The translations under genes were made by a program, and so were the position numbers. From positions 1,024,001 to 1,088,000 of the forward strand of contig JBMNIF010000002.1 of the NCBI GenBank assembly GCA_050950765.1: a stretch of 64,000 nucleotides of DNA. Direction: 5' to 3'. Position 1 is the first letter of the stretch. Every line of letters begins with the position of its first letter. The stretch is from Bdellovibrionota bacterium. GTDB lineage: Bacteria > Bdellovibrionota_C > UBA2361 > JAAYZI01. The notes beneath the pieces are model-generated. The model saw only the letters and a list, made by a program, of their open reading frames with translations. It was not told the origin of the DNA and ran no database searches. This document shows positions 1 to 39,714 of this stretch, piece after piece.

Positions 1-2
1 AT

Positions 3-1016
3 GGAGATAGTGGAGAGGTTTATGAAGATGCTTTGAAGGCGGACCTAACACTTTGCATTCAACTTTTAAAGCGAGGAATGTTGCAATATCCAGCACGAGA
101 GTATTGCGGAGAGGTTGTAGTTGTACCCATAGGAATTGCGGCTGATGAGAGCGAGGTGGAGTATAGGTTGCTCACCACTAATAACTTATCTCATCTGCCA
201 AAACGGGTGGCGTGGGGGCATAAAAAAAACTACGGACATATCTTTGTTGTAGCTGGTTCTCGTAATATGAGTGGTGCAGGTGTGCTTGCTGCAACGGCAG
301 CTTTACGGAGTGGTGCAGGGCTTGTTACTAAAGCGCAATTAATTTCAGTCACAACTGCCGATCCGCCGGAGATAATGTTTTATTACCTTGATGATCAGAA
401 GGGTGGGATTTTCACTTCTGAGATGGCTAAGGAGATTATAGAGCAGACACAGAGGAGTGATGTTTTACTAATTGGTCCAGGTTTAGGTGAGGTTGACTCA
501 ACTAAGAGTTGTGTTCTGGAGGTGCTTAGTAAAGTGCACTCACCTGTTGTGATAGATGCTTCAGCTCTGAACTCTCTTGCGACTGCGGGGGATCTCGTTC
601 TACCGCAAGAAGCAGTTTTAACACCTCATACTGGTGAGGCAGCCCGTTTACTTGGAGTTTCTGTTGAGGATGTGCAACGTGATCGTTATGCTGCTGCAAG
701 TGAGATTAGTGAAAAGTATAAAGCGGTAACGGTCTTAAAGGGAGCGGGTACCGTTATCTATTTTGCCGGTCGTGGTTTTGTTAGTGATATTGCCAATCCG
801 TATCTAGCGACAGCGGGGAGTGGCGATGTTTTAGCGGGGGTGATAGCAGCATTTATGGGGCAGGGGGTGAGTGCGTTTGAAGCTGCTAAGCTTGCAGTAA
901 TGGTGCACGGTGTAGCGGGTGAGCGGGCGCATCTAAAAACGAGAGGCTTTATAACTGCTTCTGATATTATAGCGGCGTTATCTTTTGAAAATATAGGCTC
1001 TGAAAGTGATTGTTAA
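3..1016 (+). CDS. nnr: NAD(P)H-hydrate dehydratase/epimerase (YjeF/Nnr), 5'-truncated by window edge
   Basis: Motifs HKKNYG, GAGVLA, GPGLG, VIDASAL, LTPHTGE, LKGAGT and ATAGSGDVLAG. The frame is open back to position 3. Adjacent to tsaE. Confidence 0.92.
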   Translation, partial: GDSGEVYEDALKADLTLCIQLLKRGMLQYPAREYCGEVVVVPIGIAADESEVEYRLLTTNNLSHLPKRVAWGHKKNYGHIFVVAGSRNMSGAGVLAATAALRSGAGLVTKAQLISVTTADPPEIMFYYLDDQKGGIFTSEMAKEIIEQTQRSDVLLIGPGLGEVDSTKSCVLEVLSKVHSPVVIDASALNSLATAGDLVLPQEAVLTPHTGEAARLLGVSVEDVQRDRYAAASEISEKYKAVTVLKGAGTVIYFAGRGFVSDIANPYLATAGSGDVLAGVIAAFMGQGVSAFEAAKLAVMVHGVAGERAHLKTRGFITASDIIAALSFENIGSESDC

Positions 1017-1446
1017 TAGTGAAAAGGAGACTGCTGCCTTTGCGCAGAAAGTTTTCAGTATCTTAAAAGGTGGAGAGGCTATCGGACTGATCGGTGCTTT
1101 AGGGGCGGGGAAGACGGCATTTGTGCGTTATTTTGCACAAGCAGCTGGTGTGGCAGTTGGAGAGGTTTCGTCGCCCTCTTTTGTTTTAGGTCATGAATAT
1201 CTCGCCACGCATCTTACTATTGATCATTGGGATATTTATAGATTAATGGAAGAGCCTGATGAGTTGTGGGAACCTCCTGCCTGTAGCACCATTAGGATTA
1301 TAGAGTGGGCTGATCGTTCTCAAGATCTTTTAGAGCGTTTGGATTTAACGATCACTTTTGATTTTGTTGATCTTAAAAGTAAACCGCAAGCGAGGCAGAT
1401 CTCATTGGGGGGTAGGTTAGCGGAAAAGGTAGAATCGATTTTATAA
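1006..1446 (+). CDS. tsaE: tRNA threonylcarbamoyladenosine biosynthesis ATPase TsaE (YjeE)
   Basis: Walker A GALGAGKT, VSSPSF, HWDIYRL and IIEWAD motifs; follows nnr. Confidence 0.93.
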   Translation: MIVNSEKETAAFAQKVFSILKGGEAIGLIGALGAGKTAFVRYFAQAAGVAVGEVSSPSFVLGHEYLATHLTIDHWDIYRLMEEPDELWEPPACSTIRIIEWADRSQDLLERLDLTITFDFVDLKSKPQARQISLGGRLAEKVESIL

Positions 1447-1490
1447 GGATGATATCTTTTTTTAGCTGATACAAGATACCTTGTTAAACA

Positions 1491-1630
1491 TCTTGTTAGA
1501 TGTTGTTAAAAGAATGAGTGGCGATGGTATCGCAGTAAAACCATCCTAGGATAAACCTATTTTGGGTAGTTTTCACTCACTCATTCTTAAGAGGCTACTC
1601 GGGCAGATTCGTAGAATCATGCGGAGGGGT
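1491..1630. repeat. 3'-flank module A of cassette-like ORF, homologous to 4783-4943
   Basis: Shares TCTTGTTA-AT--TGTTAAA-G--TGAGTGG, AAAACCAT, GTAGTTT-CACTCACTCA and CTACTCGGGCAGATTCGTAG with 4783-4943. Closing stem 1510-1520/1578-1588. Confidence 0.85.
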
Positions 1631-2115
1631 TACTCGGGCTTGCCCAGATCCCTAAAATCGCCAAAAGCGCGATTCCCGTTACCGGTAGAGGCGAAGAGCT
1701 TTTCGATAGAGGCGAGGAGCGCCTCGAGCTCTTTCGCAGGAATTCTAAGGGTCTTTACCCTTCTGATACACAACTCCTTGAAATTTGACGCGCCGTTAAG
1801 AATGGCTTTAGCCAAATATTCAAGTGACACACAATCAAGTGAGACGACGCGAGCAGGGCTATCTTGAGAATTAGAATCACTGATGGTAATCATGTTCTCA
1901 GTAGCATCAAGTTGCACCACGGCTAAGAGAATGAACCTCCCTCCATGGCGGAAATAGACTCGGATAATATCCTCGCCATCCTTACCACCCTTGTCGCAAA
2001 AGACTATGTGGGAACAGTCAGTAGGAAGCCCCATGTAATCTATTGTGTCTTGGAGTAACTCTTTCACAAACTCGGCAAACGAACCAGATGAGTTTGCCTG
2101 TCCTTCTTGTTGCAT
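1630..2115 (-). CDS. hypothetical protein (cassette-like ORF1, 161 aa)
   Basis: ATG preceded by AGGAGGAG SD; flanked by the repeated modules; no family recognised. Confidence 0.75.
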   Translation of the reverse strand: MQQEGQANSSGSFAEFVKELLQDTIDYMGLPTDCSHIVFCDKGGKDGEDIIRVYFRHGGRFILLAVVQLDATENMITISDSNSQDSPARVVSLDCVSLEYLAKAILNGASNFKELCIRRVKTLRIPAKELEALLASIEKLFASTGNGNRAFGDFRDLGKPE

Positions 2116-2368
2116 TTCTAACTCCTCCTTTATAAGGGGCTAGGATGTTGAAAGCTACCTACTTAAGTTAAGTAGCTTTTTGATATGAAAGACGCTTAAC
2201 CTGACAAGGAATCATCAGGTTATTCGTACAACGCTTGGAGCGATAAGTTGCGATAGGTCTCGCAGCAATTATCGCACCATTGTGAGGAACTGCTGGCTAG
2301 CTACTGCCACCCAGCGGCAAAACTCCTCACTTATTCATAGGAACTTACTCGGGCAGATTCGTAGAATC
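2113..2368. repeat. ~255 bp structured intergenic direct repeat, copy 1
   Basis: Near-identical to 2872-3125 (about a dozen differences). Contains several hairpins and the SD/ATG of the downstream ORF. Confidence 0.95.
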
Positions 2369-2874
2369 TACGGAGTTAGATAGACAGGAGCATGATATTT
2401 TTTGGGAATATCGTTCTTAACTCTGCGGAGAAGTCCATTAAACATTTTTAGATTGTCTTTTTCGTTTCGTTCTCCGTTGGGCAACCGAGCCAAAGCAAGG
2501 CATCCTGCCAAGAGATCCACCAAATTTCTAGTAAATTCCGCATCTCCATTGCTGGAAAAGATCAATTCCTCCTCCAGTGCTACCAAGCGATTCAGATTTT
2601 CCTCAGACACGCCGAAGTTCGGATCAGATTCGCGCAAGCGCTCCAAGACATTTAGAATGTCTTTTTTAGACAGGGAGAGAAACTCTTGGGTATTCAGATT
2701 TGCTTTGAACGCAGCGATCGGCTTCCCGAATTTGTGATAATAAATGATACACCCGAAGATATTTCCTCCCAGTTTCACAACCTTGATAGTGTAATTTTTC
2801 TGCGCAGGAAAGCGCGTTCTAAGCACGTTGTACAAGCTTTCGGCAAGTTTTTTAGTGTTTTCCTGATTTTCCAT
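2368..2874 (-). CDS. hypothetical protein (cassette-like ORF2, 168 aa), paralog of 4909-5430
   Basis: AGGAG SD. Aligns with ORF4: LRTRFP/LRERFP, GKPIAAFK/GVPIAPFK, VSEENLNRL/VSESSLERL, LARL/LARW. Confidence 0.8.
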   Translation of the reverse strand: MENQENTKKLAESLYNVLRTRFPAQKNYTIKVVKLGGNIFGCIIYYHKFGKPIAAFKANLNTQEFLSLSKKDILNVLERLRESDPNFGVSEENLNRLVALEEELIFSSNGDAEFTRNLVDLLAGCLALARLPNGERNEKDNLKMFNGLLRRVKNDIPKKYHAPVYLTP

Positions 2875-3125
2875 TTCTAACTCCTTTATAAGGGGCTAGG
2901 ATGTTGAAAGCTACCTATTTAAGTACAAGTAGCTTTTTGATATGAAAGACGCTTAACCAGACAAGGAATAGTCAGGTTATTCGTACAACGCTTGGAGCGA
3001 TAAGTTGCGATAGAACTCGCAACAATTATCGCACCATTGTGAGGAACCGCTGGCTAGCTACTGCCACCCAGCGGCAAAACTCCTCACTTATTCTTAGGAA
3101 CTTACTCGGGCAGATTCGTAGAATC
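2872..3125. repeat. ~255 bp structured intergenic direct repeat, copy 2
   Basis: Near-identical to 2113-2368. Confidence 0.95.
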
Positions 3126-3582
3126 ATGCGGAGAGACGAGGATCGTCGGAAGGAGATTTTGCACCTGCAACAAATCGTTCCAGCGCTTCCTCCATGAACG
3201 GTCTTAGAATACCTTCTAATATGCGCCGAATTTCTTCTTCTTCTTCTTCTTTCGGCTTAGTTCCGTTCAGCTCGAAAGAGACTCCCTTCCCTTCTTCGGC
3301 AGAATTGGGGTAGATCAGCTTTTTTACCCGATCCACATCAAGGGTGCCAATGGGGTAAAGCTCGCCAATAGGGTATTGCTTTTCGCCAGTGTGTTTGTTT
3401 CGGGTGGCTTCATCACCGTAGGCCCAGTAGATACAAATCCTCCAGATCCCGTTTCCTTTTTTTTCCACATAGATATAAAAGTTAAAAGAACCATCGAGAT
3501 TAAGCCTACTAGCGATGGTTTTAATAACGATTTTAATGTGGTTAATAAGGAAAAAGTGGGAACCTTGTTTGAAGATATACAT
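3124..3582 (-). CDS. hypothetical protein (cassette-like ORF3, ~152 aa)
   Basis: Open frame. ATG at 3582 lies 11 nt after AGGAG and is preferred over the TTG at 3624. Weak similarity to ORF2 (YIYVEKKGNGIWRICIY vs YTIKVVKLGGNIFGCIIY). Confidence 0.7.
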   Translation of the reverse strand: MYIFKQGSHFFLINHIKIVIKTIASRLNLDGSFNFYIYVEKKGNGIWRICIYWAYGDEATRNKHTGEKQYPIGELYPIGTLDVDRVKKLIYPNSAEEGKGVSFELNGTKPKEEEEEEIRRILEGILRPFMEEALERFVAGAKSPSDDPRLSA

Positions 3583-3796
3583 TTTCTTCAAAGCTCCTGC
3601 TAAAGGAATAAAACTACTACCCAAACCGTTCTAAAAATGCTTGACGCAAAAGAGCGCAACAAGTTGCGCAAATTGCGTATTCATAACCCCGTAGGGGTTA
3701 GAATAGTGAAAACTACTCAAACCGTTTTTTCAAAGAACGCTTAGGAGATAAATCTCGACGAATCGAGATACACATCGCACACTCGTGCGACATCTT

Positions 3797-3824
3797 ATCA
3801 TAAAATAGATTCTTTTTGATCCAG
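3797..3824 (-). promoter_or_regulatory. putative sigma70 promoter for ORF3-ORF2-ORF1
   Basis: -10 TATGAT with a weak -35; the context aligns with the promoter at 5554-5581. Confidence 0.45.
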
Positions 3825-4193
3825 ATAGAGAAAGTTTTAGTTAAAGTGGTGCCACCCACCTGCAACGCTCCCTTTTTTATAAAGGTTAAGGGGGGAAATA
3901 ATAGCCTGCCGTGTTAGGTGGTGAAGGGTAAAAATTATATAGATTCAGCTATATTTAACTAGAAACAGCTATAAAAGAGGTTGAAAATAATGAGAAATTT
4001 TAAAAGGGTGACACCAGATTTATTTAAGAAAGTTCTTTCTTCTGTCGATGAAGATCTAAGGTAGAGAGGGAGGAGGCTTTAGGGTAATTTAAAAAATCTT
4101 TCTTCCGTATCTCCTTAAATATCGTGTGAGCGATCAAGGCTCACAGTTTTTGGCTTGGTTTTATTAGGTCATGAACCGTCGGAGTAAAATATA

Positions 4194-4574
4194 ATGAAAA
4201 TTGAATACCGTTTAGAGGCGCTGTCGGAGTGTCCGAGTCTTAGAATCTATGATTTTGATAACACGGAAGCACGACAATTACGGGAGCTTTTTATTCAGCT
4301 TGCCGAGGGGGAGAACGATTGGACCTCCCTGCATGAGATAGATAACATAGAGGCAGTTGATGGCTGCGTTGTTAATATGCGAGTTGGCGCTTGGGATAGG
4401 GGCGTTAAAAAATTTGATGAATCACATAAATTTGAATGGATCTTAACTGAAGAGTCGTGGAAAGATCTGGCAAAAATTGCAGAAGCCTTCTGCGAAGAAG
4501 ATTCTGAAGTAAATCAAGAATGGCTCGACAAAAGAGGTGAGGTCGCAGTCTTAATTGAAAGACATGAAAGATAG
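4194..4574 (+). CDS. acidic hypothetical protein (126 aa)
   Basis: ATG with GGAG upstream; protein-like composition (CPSLRIYDF, WDRG, EWL); function not recognised. Confidence 0.75.
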   Translation: MKIEYRLEALSECPSLRIYDFDNTEARQLRELFIQLAEGENDWTSLHEIDNIEAVDGCVVNMRVGAWDRGVKKFDESHKFEWILTEESWKDLAKIAEAFCEEDSEVNQEWLDKRGEVAVLIERHER

Positions 4575-4782
4575 ATCGTTGACAATTTAATCGTTGACAA
4601 TTTAAAAGTTTAATACGCAGTGCAAAGAGGTACAGGGGTGGTGCGCTATCCACACTGCTACGAAATCCACCCGCCACCTAGCGGTAACCCTCCTCTTAGC
4701 TAGGAGGATTGATAGAGAGGTTGGCAGAAATAATAGAGCTGATTTTTTAAAGGTGGTTTGTTCTCCCTGATCGAGATTAGGC

Positions 4783-4943
4783 TCTTGTTAAATACTGTTA
4801 AAGGCGTGAGTGGGCGTTAGAGTTGCCGTGAAAATTATCACGGTTATCGCCGGAAAACCATAAAGGAATTAACCTATCAGTAGTTTCCACTCACTCACTT
4901 CAAAGAAGCTACTCGGGCAGATTCGTAGGATCTGCGGAGGGGT
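4783..4943. repeat. 3'-flank module A' of cassette-like ORF4
   Basis: Homologous to 1491-1630. Closing stem GTGAGTGG 4806-4813 / CCACTCAC 4887-4894. Confidence 0.85.
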
Positions 4944-5430
4944 CAATTTCTTTTGGGAAAGTTACGGCATGATGTGATACCGAAGGAGGTAGTAAACCTT
5001 CTGGGGCAAACCATCTTGCCAATCTCGCCGTGGACGTTGCCAAAACGTTCCAGAGATCCAGAAGTTCTTTGTATCCATTCCAATTTTCGGGTAAGTTAAT
5101 ACATCCGTTTTGGAAAAAGAACGCTTCATTTCCCAAATCTATCAGGCGTTCCAGAGATGACTCAGAAACGTTACAATCTGGGGCATATTCAGGTAAGCGA
5201 CGCAGGAGAATTGAGATGTCTTCCCCAGTTAGAGGGAAGAGCTTTCCTTCGGGCGCTATTACCTTGAACGGAGCGATCGGCACTCCGTCCTTACGATAAA
5301 TAACAAAGGCGAACTCACCCTTCCTCAGTTTCACAATGGCGATAGCGAAAAAACTATCTGCATTGTTAGGGAAGCGTTCTCTAAGCCCTTGCTGCAAGTT
5401 ATAGTAAAGACTTGCAAGATAGGCTGCCAT
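4909..5430 (-). CDS. hypothetical protein (cassette-like ORF4, 173 aa), paralog of 2368-2874
   Basis: AAGGAG SD; aligns with ORF2; its C-terminus is encoded by the shared 19 bp motif. Confidence 0.8.
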   Translation of the reverse strand: MAAYLASLYYNLQQGLRERFPNNADSFFAIAIVKLRKGEFAFVIYRKDGVPIAPFKVIAPEGKLFPLTGEDISILLRRLPEYAPDCNVSESSLERLIDLGNEAFFFQNGCINLPENWNGYKELLDLWNVLATSTARLARWFAPEGLLPPSVSHHAVTFPKEIDPSADPTNLPE

Positions 5431-5553
5431 TTTTAACTCCTTCTACCCCGTGTAGGGGGCTAGGGTGGCGAAAACTAAAACTACATTTTTAAAGATCGGT
5501 CGGCTAATAAGCCACGATAACGCGGTAACAATTGCCGCCCACTCGCGTAGTCT

Positions 5554-5581
5554 ATCGTAAAATAAATCCATTTTGAGTCAA
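5554..5581 (-). promoter_or_regulatory. putative sigma70 promoter for ORF4
   Basis: TTGACT-N16-TACGAT on the minus strand. Confidence 0.55.
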
Positions 5582-5621
5582 GCAAATCCATCCGCCACCC
5601 CTTTTTAATAAAAAAAAGAGC

Positions 5622-5781
5622 GTTTATTCCTCCGTCTTGTGAAAAGTGTAAGAGAGCACTACTAGGTCTGCAAAACGGTGTATATTCCGAAGTTTTAGGG
5701 GGTTTATTCCTCCGTCTTGAGAAAAGTGTAAGAGAGCACTACTAGGTCTGCAAAACGGTGTATATTCCGAAGTTTTAGGGG
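5622..5781. repeat. 80 bp tandem duplication of the 3' end of the RibD-C gene
   Basis: 5622-5701 equals 5702-5781 with one mismatch. Confidence 0.95.
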
Positions 5782-6423
5782 GTTACCTTTATGGCAGCAG
5801 ATCTCGTGAGTGTTAATTAGGCGCGGTGCTGATAGATCTCCGACCATAAACGGCGCAATAGCGAGACGTAGTTCATCTACAAGGTCGTTTTTTAAAAAAA
5901 GAGAGTTGATCTGCGTGCCACCTTCAATAAGTAGCCTTGAAACGCCGAGACTTTTTAAGTCAAGAGAGATCCATAAAGGCGCAGCCGCCTCTCCTGGATA
6001 ACCTCTAATAAGAGCGCAACTACCGAAAGTTCTTTCTATATCTGATACCTTCTTAGCTGGACAGTAAAGGAGGTTGTGCTCTCGTTCACCTTCAAAGAAA
6101 TGAAGTTTTGTCGAGAGCTCCCCCGAGGTTGTAATCGTTACTCGTAAAGGATGGGCAGGCTGTTTTTTTGAGAGTCTGTCTTCTATTAGAGTAGTTGATC
6201 TGATCCTTAAAAATGGGTTATCGGCGCGTAATGTGCCTGCACCGACAAGGATAGCGTCGGAGGCGGCACGTAAGGCATCAACTTCTGCCATGTCTGCCTC
6301 GTTTGAGAGGATTAAACGTTTGTCTGAAGTGTCATCAATACAACCATCAAGTGAAGTTGCAGTGCTAATAACGGTGTAAGGACGGTTTGTATCTTGTTGC
6401 ACAGTGTTATATCCAGTCTCCAT
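5704..6423 (-). CDS. RibD C-terminal domain (pyrimidine reductase/DHFR-like) protein
   Basis: ATSLDG, DAILVGAGTLRADNP, LLIEGG and LVDELRLAIAP motifs. Confidence 0.85.
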   Translation of the reverse strand: METGYNTVQQDTNRPYTVISTATSLDGCIDDTSDKRLILSNEADMAEVDALRAASDAILVGAGTLRADNPFLRIRSTTLIEDRLSKKQPAHPLRVTITTSGELSTKLHFFEGEREHNLLYCPAKKVSDIERTFGSCALIRGYPGEAAAPLWISLDLKSLGVSRLLIEGGTQINSLFLKNDLVDELRLAIAPFMVGDLSAPRLINTHEICCHKGNPLKLRNIHRFADLVVLSYTFLKTEE

Positions 6424-6624
6424 AAATCAATCATCTCTTATGTAATAACAACAAAGGGATTGTCAAACCGTAAATGTATTAAAATATCACCCTAGCTGTT
6501 AATATAATTTATCAACACGCTCTATCGTGTTGCTCAGTTAAAGAGGTGTTGTGTGCGAACTCAAGAAAAAGAGTATAACACCTCTTACGTGCAAGATATA
6601 TTTATGATCGATAAAAAATACTAA

Positions 6625-7086
6625 ATGAAAGATGACTCTGATTTTCTCAAATTAGCTTTACAGGAGGCTCAAAAATCCCCTCAAGGTGTTTATTATGCGG
6701 TAGGTTGTCTGATCGTTTCAGCAGATGGGAAACTTATCTCAACAGGATATACAGGAGAGAGGTTTTATTCAGATACAGCGTGGCACGCTGAAGAAACCGC
6801 TATCAAAAAAGCGCAAGAGCAGGAGATCGCCCTTAAGGGATCAACCCTATATTCAACAATGGAGCCGTGCTCTGAGAGAAGGTCGGGGCATACCCCGTGC
6901 ACAGAGTTGATAATCAAAGCTGGTATAAAAAAGGTCGTTTTCGCTCTCTATGAGCCGTTTGATGACTCTTTGGGGATACGGTGTTGCGGAGAAAAAGTGC
7001 TGCAATCTGCAGGGGTTGAGGTGGTTTTCTTAGAGAAATTAAGCGATTTATGCCTTCATTCTATTAAGCGGTGTCGGAGAAATTAA
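6625..7086 (+). CDS. zinc-dependent deaminase (cytidine/dCMP/RibD-deaminase superfamily)
   Basis: AVGCLIV, HAE and TMEPCSERRSGHTPC zinc-binding motifs. Confidence 0.85.
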   Translation: MKDDSDFLKLALQEAQKSPQGVYYAVGCLIVSADGKLISTGYTGERFYSDTAWHAEETAIKKAQEQEIALKGSTLYSTMEPCSERRSGHTPCTELIIKAGIKKVVFALYEPFDDSLGIRCCGEKVLQSAGVEVVFLEKLSDLCLHSIKRCRRN

Positions 7087-7252
7087 GTGGCTACCCCCCC
7101 CCACCTAGAACACCATTTTTAATATAAACGGTGCTAAAGTGAGATTTTAGCTCCAAAATATAAAAAAAATCACATTATGGTCGACATTATCTGTGTTAGG
7201 ACATCAGGTGTTAGTGTTTTTGTGTGTGGTAATACTTGAGGTAGGTAGTAAC

Positions 7253-7591
7253 ATGGATAGTGATGTATATGCAGGTAATGCGCTAATAGATTCCGTTAAG
7301 ATATCAGATGAAGATGCTGCTCGTTATCAAAGTCTATTGGCATCATACGATGAGTGCCTCGAAAGGGAAGCTCAGGAACGCGCCAGAATGGCAAAATTAC
7401 GAGAAGATAATGTAAAACACCTTACAAAAGAGTACGGCTTGCTCTTAAGTATCGATCTTAATACCGCCTATGGCAGGAAATGGTTTGAAAAAACAGTTAA
7501 GTTTTATAGCGCAAGTGATATTCTAAGTGAACGTTTTGAAGCGATAGTTGCACGCTCACGGGTGATAATGGAGTCTGAAGATCACCCCTAA
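7253..7591 (+). CDS. hypothetical protein (~112 aa, helical)
   Basis: ATG at 7253 after GAGGTAGG; no family recognised. Confidence 0.6.
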   Translation: MDSDVYAGNALIDSVKISDEDAARYQSLLASYDECLEREAQERARMAKLREDNVKHLTKEYGLLLSIDLNTAYGRKWFEKTVKFYSASDILSERFEAIVARSRVIMESEDHP

Positions 7592-7885
7592 ATTTTTGAC
7601 CTCCGTATAAACCTAACCGATTCGCTCTGTTGTTGCACCCCGTCCGATCTTTCCTAAAGGGTGAGAATTTTGACCTCCGTATAAACCTAACCGATTCGCT
7701 TTTTAGTCACACCCCATCCGATCGTCCCTGAAGGGTAGAATTTTTAACCTCCGTATAAACCTAACCGATTCGCTTTTCAGTCACACCCCGTTCAATCGTC
7801 CCTGAGGGTAGAATTTTTAACCTCCGTCCAGATCTAACCGATCCGCTCTGTTGTTGCAGCCCGTCCAATCGTCCCTGAAAGGTAA
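7591..7885 (+). repeat. tandem array of four ~74 bp units
   Basis: Core AATTTTTRACCTCCGTATAAACCTAACCGATTCGCT; CTCCGT at 7601, 7675, 7749 and 7822. Confidence 0.95.
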
Positions 7886-7985
7886 AGGGTAGAAGGGGGA
7901 GTTTAAGAAAATCCACGATTAAAATTTAAAAACTTCAAAATTAACAGATAAAGAATAATTGAAGGTGGAATAGAGAAAAATAGAG

Positions 7986-8068
7986 TGGTGAGGGACGGAT
8001 TCGAACCGCCGTACGCAAGAGCGAGCAGATTTACAGTCTGCCTCCTTTAGCCACTCGGACACCTCACC
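7986..8068 (-). tRNA. tRNA-Tyr(GTA)
   Basis: Cloverleaf with long variable arm; anticodon loop CTGTAAA; CCA not encoded. Confidence 0.95.
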
Positions 8069-8168
8069 GCAAAAAAAGAACCGCAAAAAAGAAACGCCTT
8101 AAAGTCCGTTTTTTAAAAATTTTAAATTTAAAAAACAGACATTTAGATCAAAATATTGCAAATAATTA

Positions 8169-8244
8169 TGGAGCGGGAGACGAGGCTCGAACTCGCCACC
8201 CTCAGCTTGGAAGGCTGATGCTCTACCAAATGAGCTACTCCCGC
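8169..8244 (-). tRNA. tRNA-Gly(TCC)
   Basis: GCGGGAG acceptor stem, loop CTTCCAA, 3' TCCA. Confidence 0.96.
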
Positions 8245-8426
8245 ATATTTCGTTTCACGGAGGGGTATTAATATTGAATTTAAATAAAATTACAACCCCT
8301 AAAGGGTAAATATGAAAAAAATGTTAAAATGTTTCAATATTGTTAGATATTTGTCAGATAGATCTTGCTAAAAAATGAAATTCTTATATCTTCTACCCCC
8401 GTAAACAGTGACGAGTTTTCAGATTA

Positions 8427-8502
<76 letters not shown>

Positions 8503-8522
8503 TCACTTATATGTCTGCATAA

Positions 8523-8598
8523 ACGCCTGTAGCTCAATTGGTAGAGCAACGGATTCCAAATCCGTAGGTTAGGGGTTCGATGCCTCTCAGGCGTGCCA
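8523..8598 (+). tRNA. tRNA-Trp(CCA)
   Basis: ACGCCTG/CAGGCGT acceptor stem, loop TTCCAAA; upstream of secE. Confidence 0.95.
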
Positions 8599-8875
8599 CC
8601 TTGCGGATGATTTATGCCGTTTTGGACAGATATGGCACTAGAAAGTAAATTTTTCTCTTTTTACTGTAAAAAACCCTTCTAAAAGTTTGCGATTATTTTT
8701 GAAGTTTGTTAGTGTCCACCCACTTTAACTCCGGCTGGCGTCTGGTTATCAATGTAATGAGGTGCCGAAAGGGGAGTTTTGCATCTTTTTGGAAGGGCTT
8801 ATTTAAGGAAAAGCTTAATAATTATTGAGTGCAGGTGAGGTAACGGGAGCGCTCCAGATTTTCTTAGGGTGAAGC

Positions 8876-9109
8876 ATGAGGAGAGAGAAAGGTGGTAATG
8901 CTACAACTTCGGCAAAAGCACCTAGTTTTTTAAGTAGCTGTGTAGCTGAGCTTCAGAAGGTTGTGAGACCAACGAAGGATGAGACCATTCAAGCCACTAC
9001 CGTTACGATCTTTATCTTGATCTTTGTAGCGTTGGTTCTTTGGTTTTTCGATTTTGTTTTAAGCGCAGGAGCGCGCGGAGTGTTCAAATTATTGGATGTG
9101 TTTTTATAG
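8876..9109 (+). CDS. secE: preprotein translocase subunit SecE
   Basis: ELQKVVRPT motif plus one TM helix; lies between tRNA-Trp and nusG. Confidence 0.9.
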   Translation: MRREKGGNATTSAKAPSFLSSCVAELQKVVRPTKDETIQATTVTIFILIFVALVLWFFDFVLSAGARGVFKLLDVFL

Positions 9110-9203
9110 AGAATAATTAAAGAATAGTGTAAACTTGAGTTTTTGCTTTTTTGTGATAATTAGTATTGGTTCGGCTTGTAGATAGCTTGTAGATAGTTTG
9201 GAA

Positions 9204-9953
9204 ATGGTAAAAATGACTGACGACGGTCTGATAGAAAAAATTGAAGAAGGCTCTACTGGTGAGTTGGTCACTGAGTCGACTGCTGCTGAGGTAACCAGTG
9301 AGTCGGAGAAGGGGGTTGAGGAAACTTCTTCTACTACTGATGTTGCCGCTGAAGACGCAAGTGCCGTTGAAGATAGTGGTGACGGTGAAGATGAGAACGC
9401 CGCAGCTGCTAAGCCGAAAAATCCAAACATGAAGTGGTACGTTGTTAATGCTTATTCCGGATTCGAGATGCGGGTGCTTAAGACGTTACAAGAACGTATC
9501 AATCAGTTTGGGATGCAAGATTTTTTTGGTGAAATACGTGTGCCGCAAGAAACTGTGGTGGAGCTTGTTAAAGGACAAAAAAAGACTTCAACCAGAAAGT
9601 TCTTTCCTGGATATGTGCTTGTCCAGATGGTTATGAATGAGGATACGTGGCACCTTGTAAAGGAAACATCAAAAGTTAGCGGATTTGTCGGAGATAAGAC
9701 TGACCCTGTCCCCATGCAGGAGGAAGAGGTCAATAGAATTCTTGGGCAGATTGAGGAAGGTACTTCAGCGGTGCATAGCCGTATGAAGTTTGAGGAGGGT
9801 GAGGTTATTAAGGTAATTGATGGACCTTTCGCTGAGTTTAACGGAACGGTTGAAGAAGTTAAGCCGGAGAAGGGGAAGTTAAAAGTCTTAATAAGTATCT
9901 TTGGGCGTGCCACTCCTGTTGAACTTGATTTTGTACAAGTTGAAAAGTGTTAA
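9204..9953 (+). CDS. nusG: transcription termination/antitermination factor NusG with acidic N-terminal extension (start uncertain)
   Basis: [16 protein letters not shown] domain [18 protein letters not shown]. Confidence 0.97.
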
Positions 9954-9970
9954 GTTAGTTGAGGATAAAG

Positions 9971-10393
9971 ATGGCGAAAGAAGCAGTCGCACAGATAAAA
10001 TTACAGATACCTGGTGGTCAAGCTAATCCGGCTCCGCCGATTGGGCCAGCATTAGGACAACACGGTTTGAATATCATGGATTTTTGCAAGCAGTTTAATG
10101 CAAAAACTCAAAAGCAAGCGGGGGAGATCGTTCCTGTTATTATTACGGTTTATAAAGATCGTACCTTTACTTTTGAGATGAAGACAGCTCCGGTGTCTTA
10201 CTTAATTAAGAAGGCGCTCAATGCTGCTAAAGGATCGAGTGAACCAAATAGGACCAAGATCGGTAAATTGACGCATGAGCAAGTTTTAGAGATCGCTCGA
10301 AGAAAGATGGAAGATCTGAACTGTATTGATGAAGATGCGGCGTGTAAAGTTGTTGCTGGCACTGCACGTAGTATGGGTGTTGATATACAGTAA
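9971..10393 (+). CDS. rplK: 50S ribosomal protein L11
   Basis: [22 protein letters not shown]. Confidence 0.98.
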
Positions 10394-38553: not shown

Positions 38554-39714
38554 CTACTTGTAATTTAAATTCTTGGCTGGACTCTGTTCGATGGTGTAAC
38601 GACGTTTATCGTATATTTCTACCATCTGAATGCTGGAGTGGCGTGAAAACTCCTGAACTTCACGGTGACCAATTCCATCTGATAAAAGTTTGGTTATAGC
38701 TGTGGCACGGGCGGAGTGTGGTGTAATAAACATACCCGCTCCTGCTTTGATGCAGTATTTTTTAAAAACTTTATAAAGCCCGTTAGGTGTAAGTTGATTT
38801 TTATCTCCACGTTTTGTGGTACGACCGCGATAACTGATAAATAACGGGTCTGCTGCTTCAGCACCCTCTGCTAGCCGTTGTTCAAGTAGGGCAAAGAGCG
38901 CCTCTGCTGCCCAGTCAGGGATAGTTTGGTCAGCGTCTTTTCTATTTTTTGTTGCTCTGAGACGTAGATAAGTAGTGCCACTCGGTGACTTGCAGATGTC
39001 ACAAAGCTTAAGTGCTGTAACTTCACTTCTACGTAATCCGCCACCAAATAAAAGAGATAAGGCAGCTTTATCTCTAATGCCCTTAGGGGTGTTTAGATCG
39101 GGTTGGTCTAACACGGTCTCCACTAATGAAAAATCTAACATCTCAGTAGGTCGCTTTTGCCCAGATTTAGCAGATGGTGCAGGAACTCTATCTGAATCAA
39201 AAGGATTTATTCTTATCCCTAGTTCTGCTGCAATTAACATCCTGTAAAGGCGGCGTAGAACAGTAAACTTTTTGGCGATAGTGGCGTTTGCTTGTGTTGA
39301 TTGTAGACCATCACGACGTTGCTTAACCTCTTTTATAAGTTGAAGTGCTTTATCTTTGCTTTGAGAGGCGTGATGGCGTGGGCTCTGTCCAGGTTGACGC
39401 TCTAGCCATTTTCTATAAGCCATAGCGTGTAGATCTGAAGCGTTTAAAAAGGCTGTGGCGGCGGCGTTACTCCCAGCAGGTGCGCCAAGAAACTCACACC
39501 ACTCCTTAATGATTCCGATATAAGTGCGTTGAGTGTTTTTTGATTTTAGATCTAAAAAAGCATTGATGCGGATCCAGACAGGGCTAATATCAGAATCGTT
39601 ACTTGAAAGGTGCTCTATGGGGAGTAAGAGAGCTCTATCCGAGTCCTTCTCTTTTGATGAAGACTTGGTGAAGTTGCTTAATGCTTCAGTGTGTAATGAA
39701 TCCCGCATTTTCAT
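38554..39714 (-). CDS. tyrosine recombinase/integrase (XerC/D-like)
   Basis: Catalytic set R (GLRRSE), K (ATKN), HSAR, H (SRHSS) and Y (EIYD). ATG at 39714 avoids an overlap with coaE. Confidence 0.9.
   Translation of the reverse strand: MKMRDSLHTEALSNFTKSSSKEKDSDRALLLPIEHLSSNDSDISPVWIRINAFLDLKSKNTQRTYIGIIKEWCEFLGAPAGSNAAATAFLNASDLHAMAYRKWLERQPGQSPRHHASQSKDKALQLIKEVKQRRDGLQSTQANATIAKKFTVLRRLYRMLIAAELGIRINPFDSDRVPAPSAKSGQKRPTEMLDFSLVETVLDQPDLNTPKGIRDKAALSLLFGGGLRRSEVTALKLCDICKSPSGTTYLRLRATKNRKDADQTIPDWAAEALFALLEQRLAEGAEAADPLFISYRGRTTKRGDKNQLTPNGLYKVFKKYCIKAGAGMFITPHSARATAITKLLSDGIGHREVQEFSRHSSIQMVEIYDKRRYTIEQSPAKNLNYK

Follow-up and report, generated by a model that had tools for sequence, protein, structure and literature searches.

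Layout and anatomy of the array

We analysed a cassette-like array of small genes in the genome of an uncultured bacterium of the Bdellovibrionota; the stretch of DNA considered, called the window below, has 64,000 nucleotides (nt) and corresponds to C2:1024001-1088000 of a 2.64-Mb genome assembled in five contigs and 94% complete. Four co-oriented open reading frames (ORFs 1-4) of 161, 168, 152 and 173 amino acids (aa) lie on the minus strand at a chromosomal site flanked by tsaE and a RibD_C-domain gene (Pfam annotation), each of them between related 5′ and 3′ non-coding modules (Table 1). The flanks are far more alike than the bodies they enclose, and in near-identical strains the same flanks are joined to other bodies. 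A preliminary description of this DNA, made from the letters alone, had given the same ORFs, coordinates and modules, and we found them as described. Its further statements were borne out by the values given below: that ORF2 and ORF4 are distant paralogs, with ORF1 and ORF3 barely alignable (at control level in Smith-Waterman comparison); that the spacers beside ORF2 differ at about a dozen positions; that non-coding DNA is more conserved than the bodies, of which only ORF2 and ORF4 are clearly alike; and, as a domain search confirmed, that no transposase, reverse transcriptase (RT) or IntI lies in the locus. The guanine-plus-cytosine (GC) content of the array is 0.429, compared with 0.431 for the window.

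A unit opens with a core resembling repetitive extragenic palindromic (REP) sequences, behind which lies a sigma-70-like promoter; next come a leader that is structured and carries a Shine-Dalgarno site, the coding body itself, a motif of 23 nt (GATTCTACGAATCTGCCCGAGTA) and a Y-shaped, terminator-like stem-loop. The core at the unit head is GGGTGGCA or a near variant; its plus-strand GCCACC occurs once per head of a 5′ module, a truncated module included (at 2306, 3063, 3851, 4673 and 5594). In unit 4 the promoter-like block reads TTGACT-16-TACGAT (5581 to 5554), and the −35/−10-like block can be aligned across units 3, 4 and 5, the −10-like hexamer being TATGAT in unit 3 and TACGAT in units 4 and 5. 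The leader is ∼130 nt long and ends with a small hairpin beside the Shine-Dalgarno site; GGAG is present 7-12 nt upstream of the ATG in all five ORFs, counting ORF5 of a solo unit located elsewhere in the genome.

The 3′ modules are alike in 10 of 10 unit pairs (z from 7.5 to 38.5). The recurrence of the core of their motif is far above chance: its 17 nt occur five times in the genome with no more than one mismatch, all on one strand, and not once in the reversed control. All three full 3′ modules (units 1, 4 and 5) have a three-way stem-loop followed by U-rich sequence, with folding z-scores of −5.0, −2.8 and −2.0, respectively; a separate test of the unit 1 3′ region gave −5.5. In the run ORF3-ORF2-ORF1 the 3′ module ends after ∼50 nt and is joined to the next 5′ module, resulting in two near-identical spacers: 2116-2367 and 2875-3123 are 94.4% identical over 253 columns (14 differences).

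The spacer at 2875-3123 folds strongly (z −8.05) into several hairpins, the last of which contains the Shine-Dalgarno site. The stability of the unit 4 leader is not unusual (z −1.1), and a search of Rfam over positions 1-10000 yielded tRNAs only. Some of the 14 differences between the spacers disrupt predicted base pairs with no compensation, as judged by eye. For the non-coding scaffold, which the preliminary description had linked to a structured RNA, the simplest reading is promoter, leader and terminator, with roles predicted from sequence features, rather than an RNA gene in its own right.

The motif encodes the C-terminus of ORF4 (...DPTNLPE-stop), and an ORF2-like protein from another sample, P0005, ends likewise (P0002, P0003, P0005, P0007 and P0009 are labels of database proteins). 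In the units of ORF1, ORF2, ORF3 and ORF5 the motif DNA is out of frame or past the stop, and the alleles P0003 and P0002 terminate shortly ahead of the tail. The motif is the coding end of an ancestral tail (...TNLPE-stop); as a remnant of the tail is found in five of five units, the units should descend from one tail-bearing gene. Since the tail is expendable as protein but its DNA is retained, we read it as part of the conserved 3′ flank; retention could be due to function, to conversion or to both. In the solo unit (ORF5 at L003:1671-2051) 47 codons of the tail frame are open and overlap ORF5 at its end, and for this reason ORF5 may be a frameshifted form of a longer, tail-bearing protein.

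With nhmmer, the 5′-module profile and the 3′-module profile found the same five places and nothing more below E 1e-3 (for the 5′ module, E 7e-34 in unit 4 and 6.6e-46 in unit 3); BLASTN agreed. The whole-genome search proposed in the preliminary description had thereby revealed a second locus, the solo unit, which lies between two 74-nt repeat arrays, its two ends abutting the same 15-nt repeat start. The proposed search of relatives was negative: the scaffold, and the array DNA as a whole, was absent from 40 genomes of the same order. The motif core had 2-mismatch matches only in the relatives, ∼16 versus ∼10 in reversed controls. In the nearest relative, G001, yjeF-tsaE is kept and followed by different genes; the query used did not detect the RibD_C gene in it. 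Among JGI metagenome contigs we found neither the 19-nt motif nor a match to the protein profile, viral contigs had nothing by motif or by protein profile, and the phage and plasmid collections gave no match. A gapped form of the motif had 14 matches in species genome contigs, all in unrelated phyla; because of this scatter we take them as chance.

Table 1. Features of the array, the solo unit and the Y1_Tnp element (window coordinates unless a contig is given)
Feature	Coordinates	Strand	Description
Unit 1, 3′ module	1505-1629	−	motif 1595-1618, Y-shaped stem-loop, then UUUU
ORF1	1630-2115	−	161 aa; end ...DLGKPE-stop (own tail-like), then second, out-of-frame tail remnant
ORF2/ORF1 spacer	2116-2367	−	motif 2345-2368; REP-like core 2306
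ORF2	2368-2874	−	168 aa; paralog of ORF4
ORF3/ORF2 spacer	2875-3123	−	3′ module cut short, with motif 3102-3125, running into 5′ module with REP-like core 3063
ORF3	3124-3582	−	152 aa; 166 aa if TTG start at 3624
Unit 3, 5′ module	3583-3880	−	REP-like core 3851, −10-like TATGAT, leader with ∼100 nt extra stretch
Opposite-strand segment within array	3981-4574	+	between units 4 and 3; three features
Small ORF in that segment	3981/3990-4064	+	24-27 aa
Terminator-like hairpin in that segment	4125-4145	+	
Acidic orphan ORF in that segment	4194-4574	+	126 aa
Truncated extra 5′ module u4b	4575-4700	−	REP-like core 4673; no family ORF behind
Unit 4, 3′ module	4795-4932	−	23-nt motif 4909-4932 overlapping ORF4 end, Y-shaped stem-loop, U-rich sequence
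ORF4	4909-5430	−	173 aa; sole unit with tail motif in frame (...DPTNLPE-stop)
Unit 4, 5′ module	5431-5616	−	REP-like core (+ strand GCCACC, 5594), promoter-like block, leader, small hairpin, GGAG
Upstream boundary	5617-5776		two tandem 80-nt copies, 96% identical
ORF5, solo unit	C2:194830-195640		126 aa; ∼830 kb from array
Y1_Tnp element, six copies	C2:7795, 892855, 1186722; C3:211452; C5:8074; C1:184936		

Several smaller features of the site may be added. The acidic 126-aa ORF of the plus strand had no family match in Pfam, PADLOC, PHROGs or NCBIfam, and the truncated module u4b points into its 3′ end. The 80-nt copies of the upstream boundary contain the 3′-terminal codons of the RibD_C-domain gene (5704-6423, minus strand) together with its stop; their unit opens with a T-run followed by CCTCCGT, as does the 74-nt repeat. 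A 15-nt tandem at 4571-4607 has one copy missing in one of the sequencing runs considered below (X9). About 50 nt at 3932-3981 recur at C2:830004-830052 with 88% identity, and contigs of other runs match this piece only.

Coding bodies and their variation among strains

Relatedness of the bodies is clear for a single pair: ORF2 and ORF4 share 40.6% identity across 106 aa (E 1.7e-15; Smith-Waterman z 23, 300 shuffles). By the same test the remaining pairs among ORFs 1-5 scored no better than unrelated control pairs, and hhalign probabilities between bodies were <4%. At the DNA level the similarity of ORF2 to ORF4 had z 14.5; weak similarity was seen for ORF3 and ORF4 (z 6.5) and for ORF1 and ORF2 (z 4.0).

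AlphaFold models built on shallow alignments were obtained for ORF4 (predicted local distance difference test, pLDDT, 73.6; predicted template modelling score, pTM, 0.70) and for ORF3 (pLDDT 65.6; pTM 0.63). In the ORF4 model a helix (residues 2-19) is followed by four strands (28-36, 39-46, 51-58 and 63-65) and three helices, and from residue 133 on the chain is a disordered tail; the ORF3 model has a helix (9-26), strands (33-41, 47-55 and 76-82) and then helices, the order helix, strands, helices being the same in both. The VIA-align top-50 lists of the two models, drawn from 48,161 chains, have 16 entries in common, which indicates that the models share a general architecture. The best VIA-align Z-scores, 6.2 (phage chimallin) and 5.1, are within noise; the Foldseek comparison suggested in the preliminary description produced nothing at E≤0.001 against the PDB, and the ESM Atlas gave no usable match. 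Given the similar lengths, the same order of elements in two models and the tail remnant in all five units, the bodies are more likely to be very diverged paralogs than unrelated captured genes. They would all be versions of one alpha/beta protein of common ancestry, with the exposed beta-sheet as the probable variable surface.

No credible family could be assigned to the proteins by Pfam, PADLOC, PHROGs or NCBIfam. An exhaustive profile search of 1.84 billion representative proteins found three: ORF2 itself, P0003 and the ORF2-like P0005; word-based protein searches gave one or two close alleles per ORF. Alleles of ORF4 are P0002 (84% identical) and P0003 (62%). A variant of ORF1, P0007, has a clean in-frame deletion of 37 residues (64-100); it is located on a 1-kb contig and may be either a real allele or an assembly collapse. 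An allele with a 1-codon deletion was found as well. The ORFs are real genes, as follows from the in-frame deletion alleles, from the confidence of the models and from the presence of RNA-library contigs on ORF1, ORF3 and ORF4. By analogy with known systems, the proteins may be specific intracellular binders engaged in an antagonistic interaction, immunity-like or anti-effector-like. A type III toxin-antitoxin system (structured RNA ahead of a toxin of ∼170 aa) was considered and rejected: there were no tandem short RNA repeats and no ToxN-like match.

Part of the stretch is contained in 24 public runs, mostly bioreactor or anaerobic-digester metagenomes; eight contain at least half of its words. 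We compared Logan contigs of an RNA-library run, X11, and of the DNA runs X7, X8 and X9 (labels of public runs) over positions 800-6600. Contigs left uncovered ORF2 (∼2400-2870) in X8, X9 and X11 and ORF4 in X9; in the RNA run X11 they also left uncovered tsaE, the RibD_C gene and the plus-strand ORF; these gaps carry no evidential weight. In the flanking housekeeping genes the X8 and X9 contigs have 0-2 differences per 316-652 nt: the same species. The contigs of X11 lie on ORF1, ORF3, ORF4, the spacer and another body, which by itself does not prove transcription.

In ORF3, X11 and X9 (X8 in part) have 21 listed differences within 3330-3561 (232 nt), changing 15 codons, 14 of them non-synonymously, with no stop introduced; X7 has the reference letters wherever covered. 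The changes cluster at the first two strands and the intervening turn (residues 36-54), and the second half of the gene is identical. This strain variant reproduces the database allele P0009, which has 14 residue differences, all within residues 8-85. The starting bases of the 21 substitutions are G in six cases, T in six, A in five and C in four, with no bias to adenine. The non-synonymous excess in ORF3 is a clear signature of positive selection.

We also saw contigs leaving the scaffold for unlike sequence, at 2368 (one contig in X8 and one in X9) and at 2872 (one in X11 and one in X8). The X11 contig is ∼98% identical over 2872-3162 (five other letters and one gap in 290 nt) and continues into 413 nt of unlike sequence. 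This new body is open from the same ATG as ORF2, its other end stops just short of the 3′ motif, and the visible unlike 30-mers do not occur in the present genome at ≤3 mismatches. A third body appears in another X11 contig, where unknown sequence is fused in frame with the last 12 codons of ORF3; X8 carries a P0002-type allele of ORF4 with one extra codon after the ATG. The exit points of the contigs fall exactly on the start codon of ORF2 and on the 3′ motif; therefore, different bodies occupy the same frame. A joint from 3162 back to 2888 was observed in X9 (side 35 nt, likeness threshold 80).

Explanations of the exchange of bodies

The explanation that we prefer, with a probability of roughly 0.55, is a lineage-specific, positively selected paralog family in which the regulatory flanks undergo concerted evolution and act as the homology arms through which ordinary recombination exchanges bodies. 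Each unit would be a complete, portable expression unit with an ORF of 126-173 codons. Positive selection would push the coding bodies apart, and regulatory function together with gene conversion would keep the flanks alike, with conversion tracts ending at the limits of homology, namely the ATG on one side and the tail motif on the other. Recombination of RecA type, among units or with DNA of other strains, could then replace, add or delete bodies, leaving the expression signals undisturbed. It is from the conservation of the flanks that we infer their part as homology arms, and the recombination route should be understood in the same way. The preliminary description had proposed cassette exchange with swapped variable payloads. 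Exchange as such agrees with the other bodies seen on the same scaffold in strains, and the variability of payloads agrees with the non-synonymous variation of ORF3; a dedicated apparatus does not fit the lack of IntI, RT, attC-like cores and adenine bias, and the payloads are probably diverged paralogs, not unrelated genes.

A number of observations weigh against this explanation. The repeated spacers break up the strain contigs, which are short; bodies are seen joined to the scaffold in such a way that replacement in the ORF2 slot and presence of an extra unit look the same. Beyond ORF2 and ORF4 the bodies are not linked by any sequence method, and the common fold depends on two models of medium confidence and on structure lists in the noise range; the lack of sequence links and the noise-level structure scores may leave room for unrelated captured ORFs. 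None of Pfam, PADLOC, PHROGs and NCBIfam links the proteins to a toxin, a secretion system or a defence family, and the immunity-like role is drawn from analogy. As to the flanks, one of five modules (unit 4) passed the promoter scan; double changes were seen at 3 of 33 predicted pairs, three to five copies being too few for covariation; and the contigs are uninformative on transcript ends, strand and level, so that the regulatory roles stay predictions.

The rival that survives best, still rather unlikely, is ordinary tandem duplication: an old family that drifts, one recent conversion or duplication of the spacers, and gain or loss of paralogs as the source of the strain differences, the flanks playing no part in exchange. 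The near-identity of 94.4% is indeed limited to two spacers, other modules being 70-89% alike; the uncompensated breaks of predicted pairs, the native GC content, the small number of copies (five) and the lack of a mobility gene in the locus are in line with this scenario as well. Neutral drift, however, would be unable to explain how 3′ flanks remain 80-89% identical while bodies lose all detectable similarity, or the 14:1 excess of non-synonymous changes in half of ORF3 between strains that are near-identical elsewhere; nor could it explain why junctions with new sequence are placed exactly at the ATG and at the motif.

Could the units be moved by an enzyme? We saw no sign of machinery dedicated to exchange or diversification. 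Transposase, RT and integrase domains were absent from the locus, as was any recombinase domain from positions 1-9000 of the window. Genome-wide, the best match to the integron integrase model TIGR02249 had 49.8 bits, compared with a cut-off of 265 (sub-threshold matches were present in 14 of 14 control genomes as well), and RVT_1 had no match. Pairs of attC type (RYYYAAC...GTTRRRY, 40-130 nt apart, both strands of 1400-5800) numbered 0 versus a shuffle mean of 0.8, the test being a simple pattern and not the covariance model of IntegronFinder. A weak tyrosine-recombinase-like match at 38608-38817 (minus strand), 20.4 bits to the integron-integrase model, was observed in a 427-aa frame ∼33 kb off.

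The core at the unit head is at the same time the core of a ∼74-nt tandem repeat spread over the genome (503 profile hits in 160 arrays, ∼57 kb), one array of which is situated at window positions 7594-7888; GGGTGGCAC has 1,025 occurrences in the genome, with 6.4 expected by composition. In inverted orientation the repeat core bounds, on both sides, a 1.49-kb element whose six copies are 97.5-99% identical and encode a Y1_Tnp-domain protein of 332-350 aa; the last ∼420 nt of the element are sometimes tandemly duplicated. The association of the units with the REP-like repeat core is real; a mechanistic link between the units and the Y1 transposase would be speculative, because only 9-14 nt are shared and the repeats occur all over the genome.

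One could suppose, with low expectation, a dedicated site-specific cassette system of a new kind: an enzyme whose gene lies outside the array, e.g. the Y1 (HUH) transposase, would excise, copy or insert units, using the REP-like core and the 23-nt motif in cis. A core at the head of every 5′ module (GCCACC in five of five, the truncated one included), the 1,025 copies of GGGTGGCAC, the six-copy element with its Y1_Tnp ORF between inverted cores, the solo unit set between 74-nt repeat arrays with both ends at the same 15-nt repeat start and the retention of the 23-nt motif where it is no longer coding all point in this direction. Still, the match to the ends of the transposase element is just 9-14 nt, there is no inverted core at the 3′ end of the units, and five units versus ∼500 repeat copies mean that units have not spread as repeats have; given how often the core occurs between genes (160 arrays), its adjacency may be incidental, and attC-like sites and IntI are lacking. 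Equally doubtful is integrase-free, cell-encoded shuffling in which the GGGTGGCA core and the 23-nt motif are sites where the Y1 (HUH) transposase or another nicking enzyme initiates copying, replacement or relocation of entire expression units; were such shuffling to take place, the bodies of an immunity-like protein family would be interchangeable and form a pool spanning the population. That structured RNAs (leader, small RNA or element of the 3′ untranslated region) are the functional part and the ORFs are secondary, short-lived or decaying is highly improbable: spacer folds are indeed much more stable than those of shuffled sequence (z −8.05 and −5.5), and what is conserved of the tail motif is its DNA or RNA and not its protein, the frame being lost in four of five units, but no Rfam family matches, the ORFs retain long open frames, Shine-Dalgarno sites and foldable cores, alleles vary by in-frame indels and many substitutions with no stop, the spacer differences are not compensatory and the unit 4 leader has z −1.1.

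If exchange by homologous flanks is the true explanation, conserved regulatory flanks alone can make a paralog family an exchangeable pool of cassettes, and the proteins would mark an antagonistic interaction in digester communities. The REP-like repeats together with the multi-copy Y1 transposase offer a testable route to a new mobilisation mechanism.

Comparison with known systems

The closest parallel is offered by the promoter early stem-loop (PeSL) cassettes of T4-type phages, in which, as outlined in the literature, a terminator stem-loop, a promoter and a Shine-Dalgarno site are placed between small orphan ORFs, ORFs between the motifs are inserted, deleted or replaced from one close relative to another, and the mechanism proposed is homologous recombination between motifs that carry their own expression signals (PMC2839356, Arbiol et al. 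2010; PMC4122927, Comeau et al. 2014). In our array, too, the whole gap between neighbouring small orphan ORFs, stop codon to start codon, is taken up by a flank that may be such a composite, and near-identical strains carry other bodies, with joints at the ATG, the motif and the ORF3 tail. Tested for the parts of the composite, the flanks have stem-loops and Shine-Dalgarno sites; a −10-like block is found in three modules and one of the five passes the promoter scan. The setting is different: a cellular chromosome, between housekeeping genes, in place of a phage hyperplastic region, and there was neither a PHROG hit nor a match in phage DNA. Our modules are ∼110-300 nt long, compared with ∼100 bp in PeSL, and are present in five copies as opposed to ∼50; our ORFs are probably one diverged family, and the units have a REP-like core and a fossil coding tail.

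Arrays of genes for acquired interbacterial defence associated with a recombinase (rAID genes) in Bacteroidales are described as consisting of orphan immunity genes with conserved intergenic motifs and a recombinase, with non-synonymous change at the binding interface (Ross et al., 10.1101/471110; PMC12247911). Short co-oriented genes with conserved intergenic motifs are the feature shared with the present array. Unlike rAID arrays, it has no adjacent XerD-like recombinase (the nearest tyrosine-recombinase-like frame is ∼33 kb away) and no GC skew, and its proteins match no known immunity family; it comprises four genes only, belongs to a different phylum and has no known toxin partner.

Integron arrays contain co-oriented, promoter-poor ORFs separated by repeats more alike than the genes, and in a cluster of attC sites lacking integron integrases (CALIN) the integrase itself is missing. 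Here as well the repeats are more alike than the genes they separate, and no integrase adjoins. The differences are that the genome has no IntI and the array no RYYYAAC...GTTRRRY pair; that the repeats span the distance from stop to start codon and include promoter-like and Shine-Dalgarno sites; and that the variable segment is exactly the coding body, not an ORF plus attC. A diversity-generating retroelement was rejected, RVT_1 being absent from the genome and the ORF3 substitutions not being specific to adenine.

With regard to the repeats, the comparison is with systems of REPs or their inverted doublets (REPINs) and REP-associated tyrosine transposases (RAYTs) (PMC3337134, PMC5581495), the RAYT genes being described as typically single-copy (PMC5581495). 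Similar are the over-represented intergenic core and its inverted placement on both sides of a Y1 (HUH) transposase gene; here the core also heads every unit. The repeats of this genome are, however, direct tandem units of ∼74 nt and not inverted doublets, the transposase gene is present in six near-identical copies, and REPINs carry no genes.

Narrow word searches of the literature returned no description of a cellular array of this kind. Shuffling of orphan genes between promoter/terminator motifs is known from T4-type phages, and immunity arrays with a recombinase are known from gut Bacteroidales; what would be new is that this logic operates in a cellular chromosome, that of an uncultured bacterium, with no recombinase in the array. 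The interest of the case is mainly in its clean strain-level evidence and in the association with REP-like repeats and a Y1 transposase.

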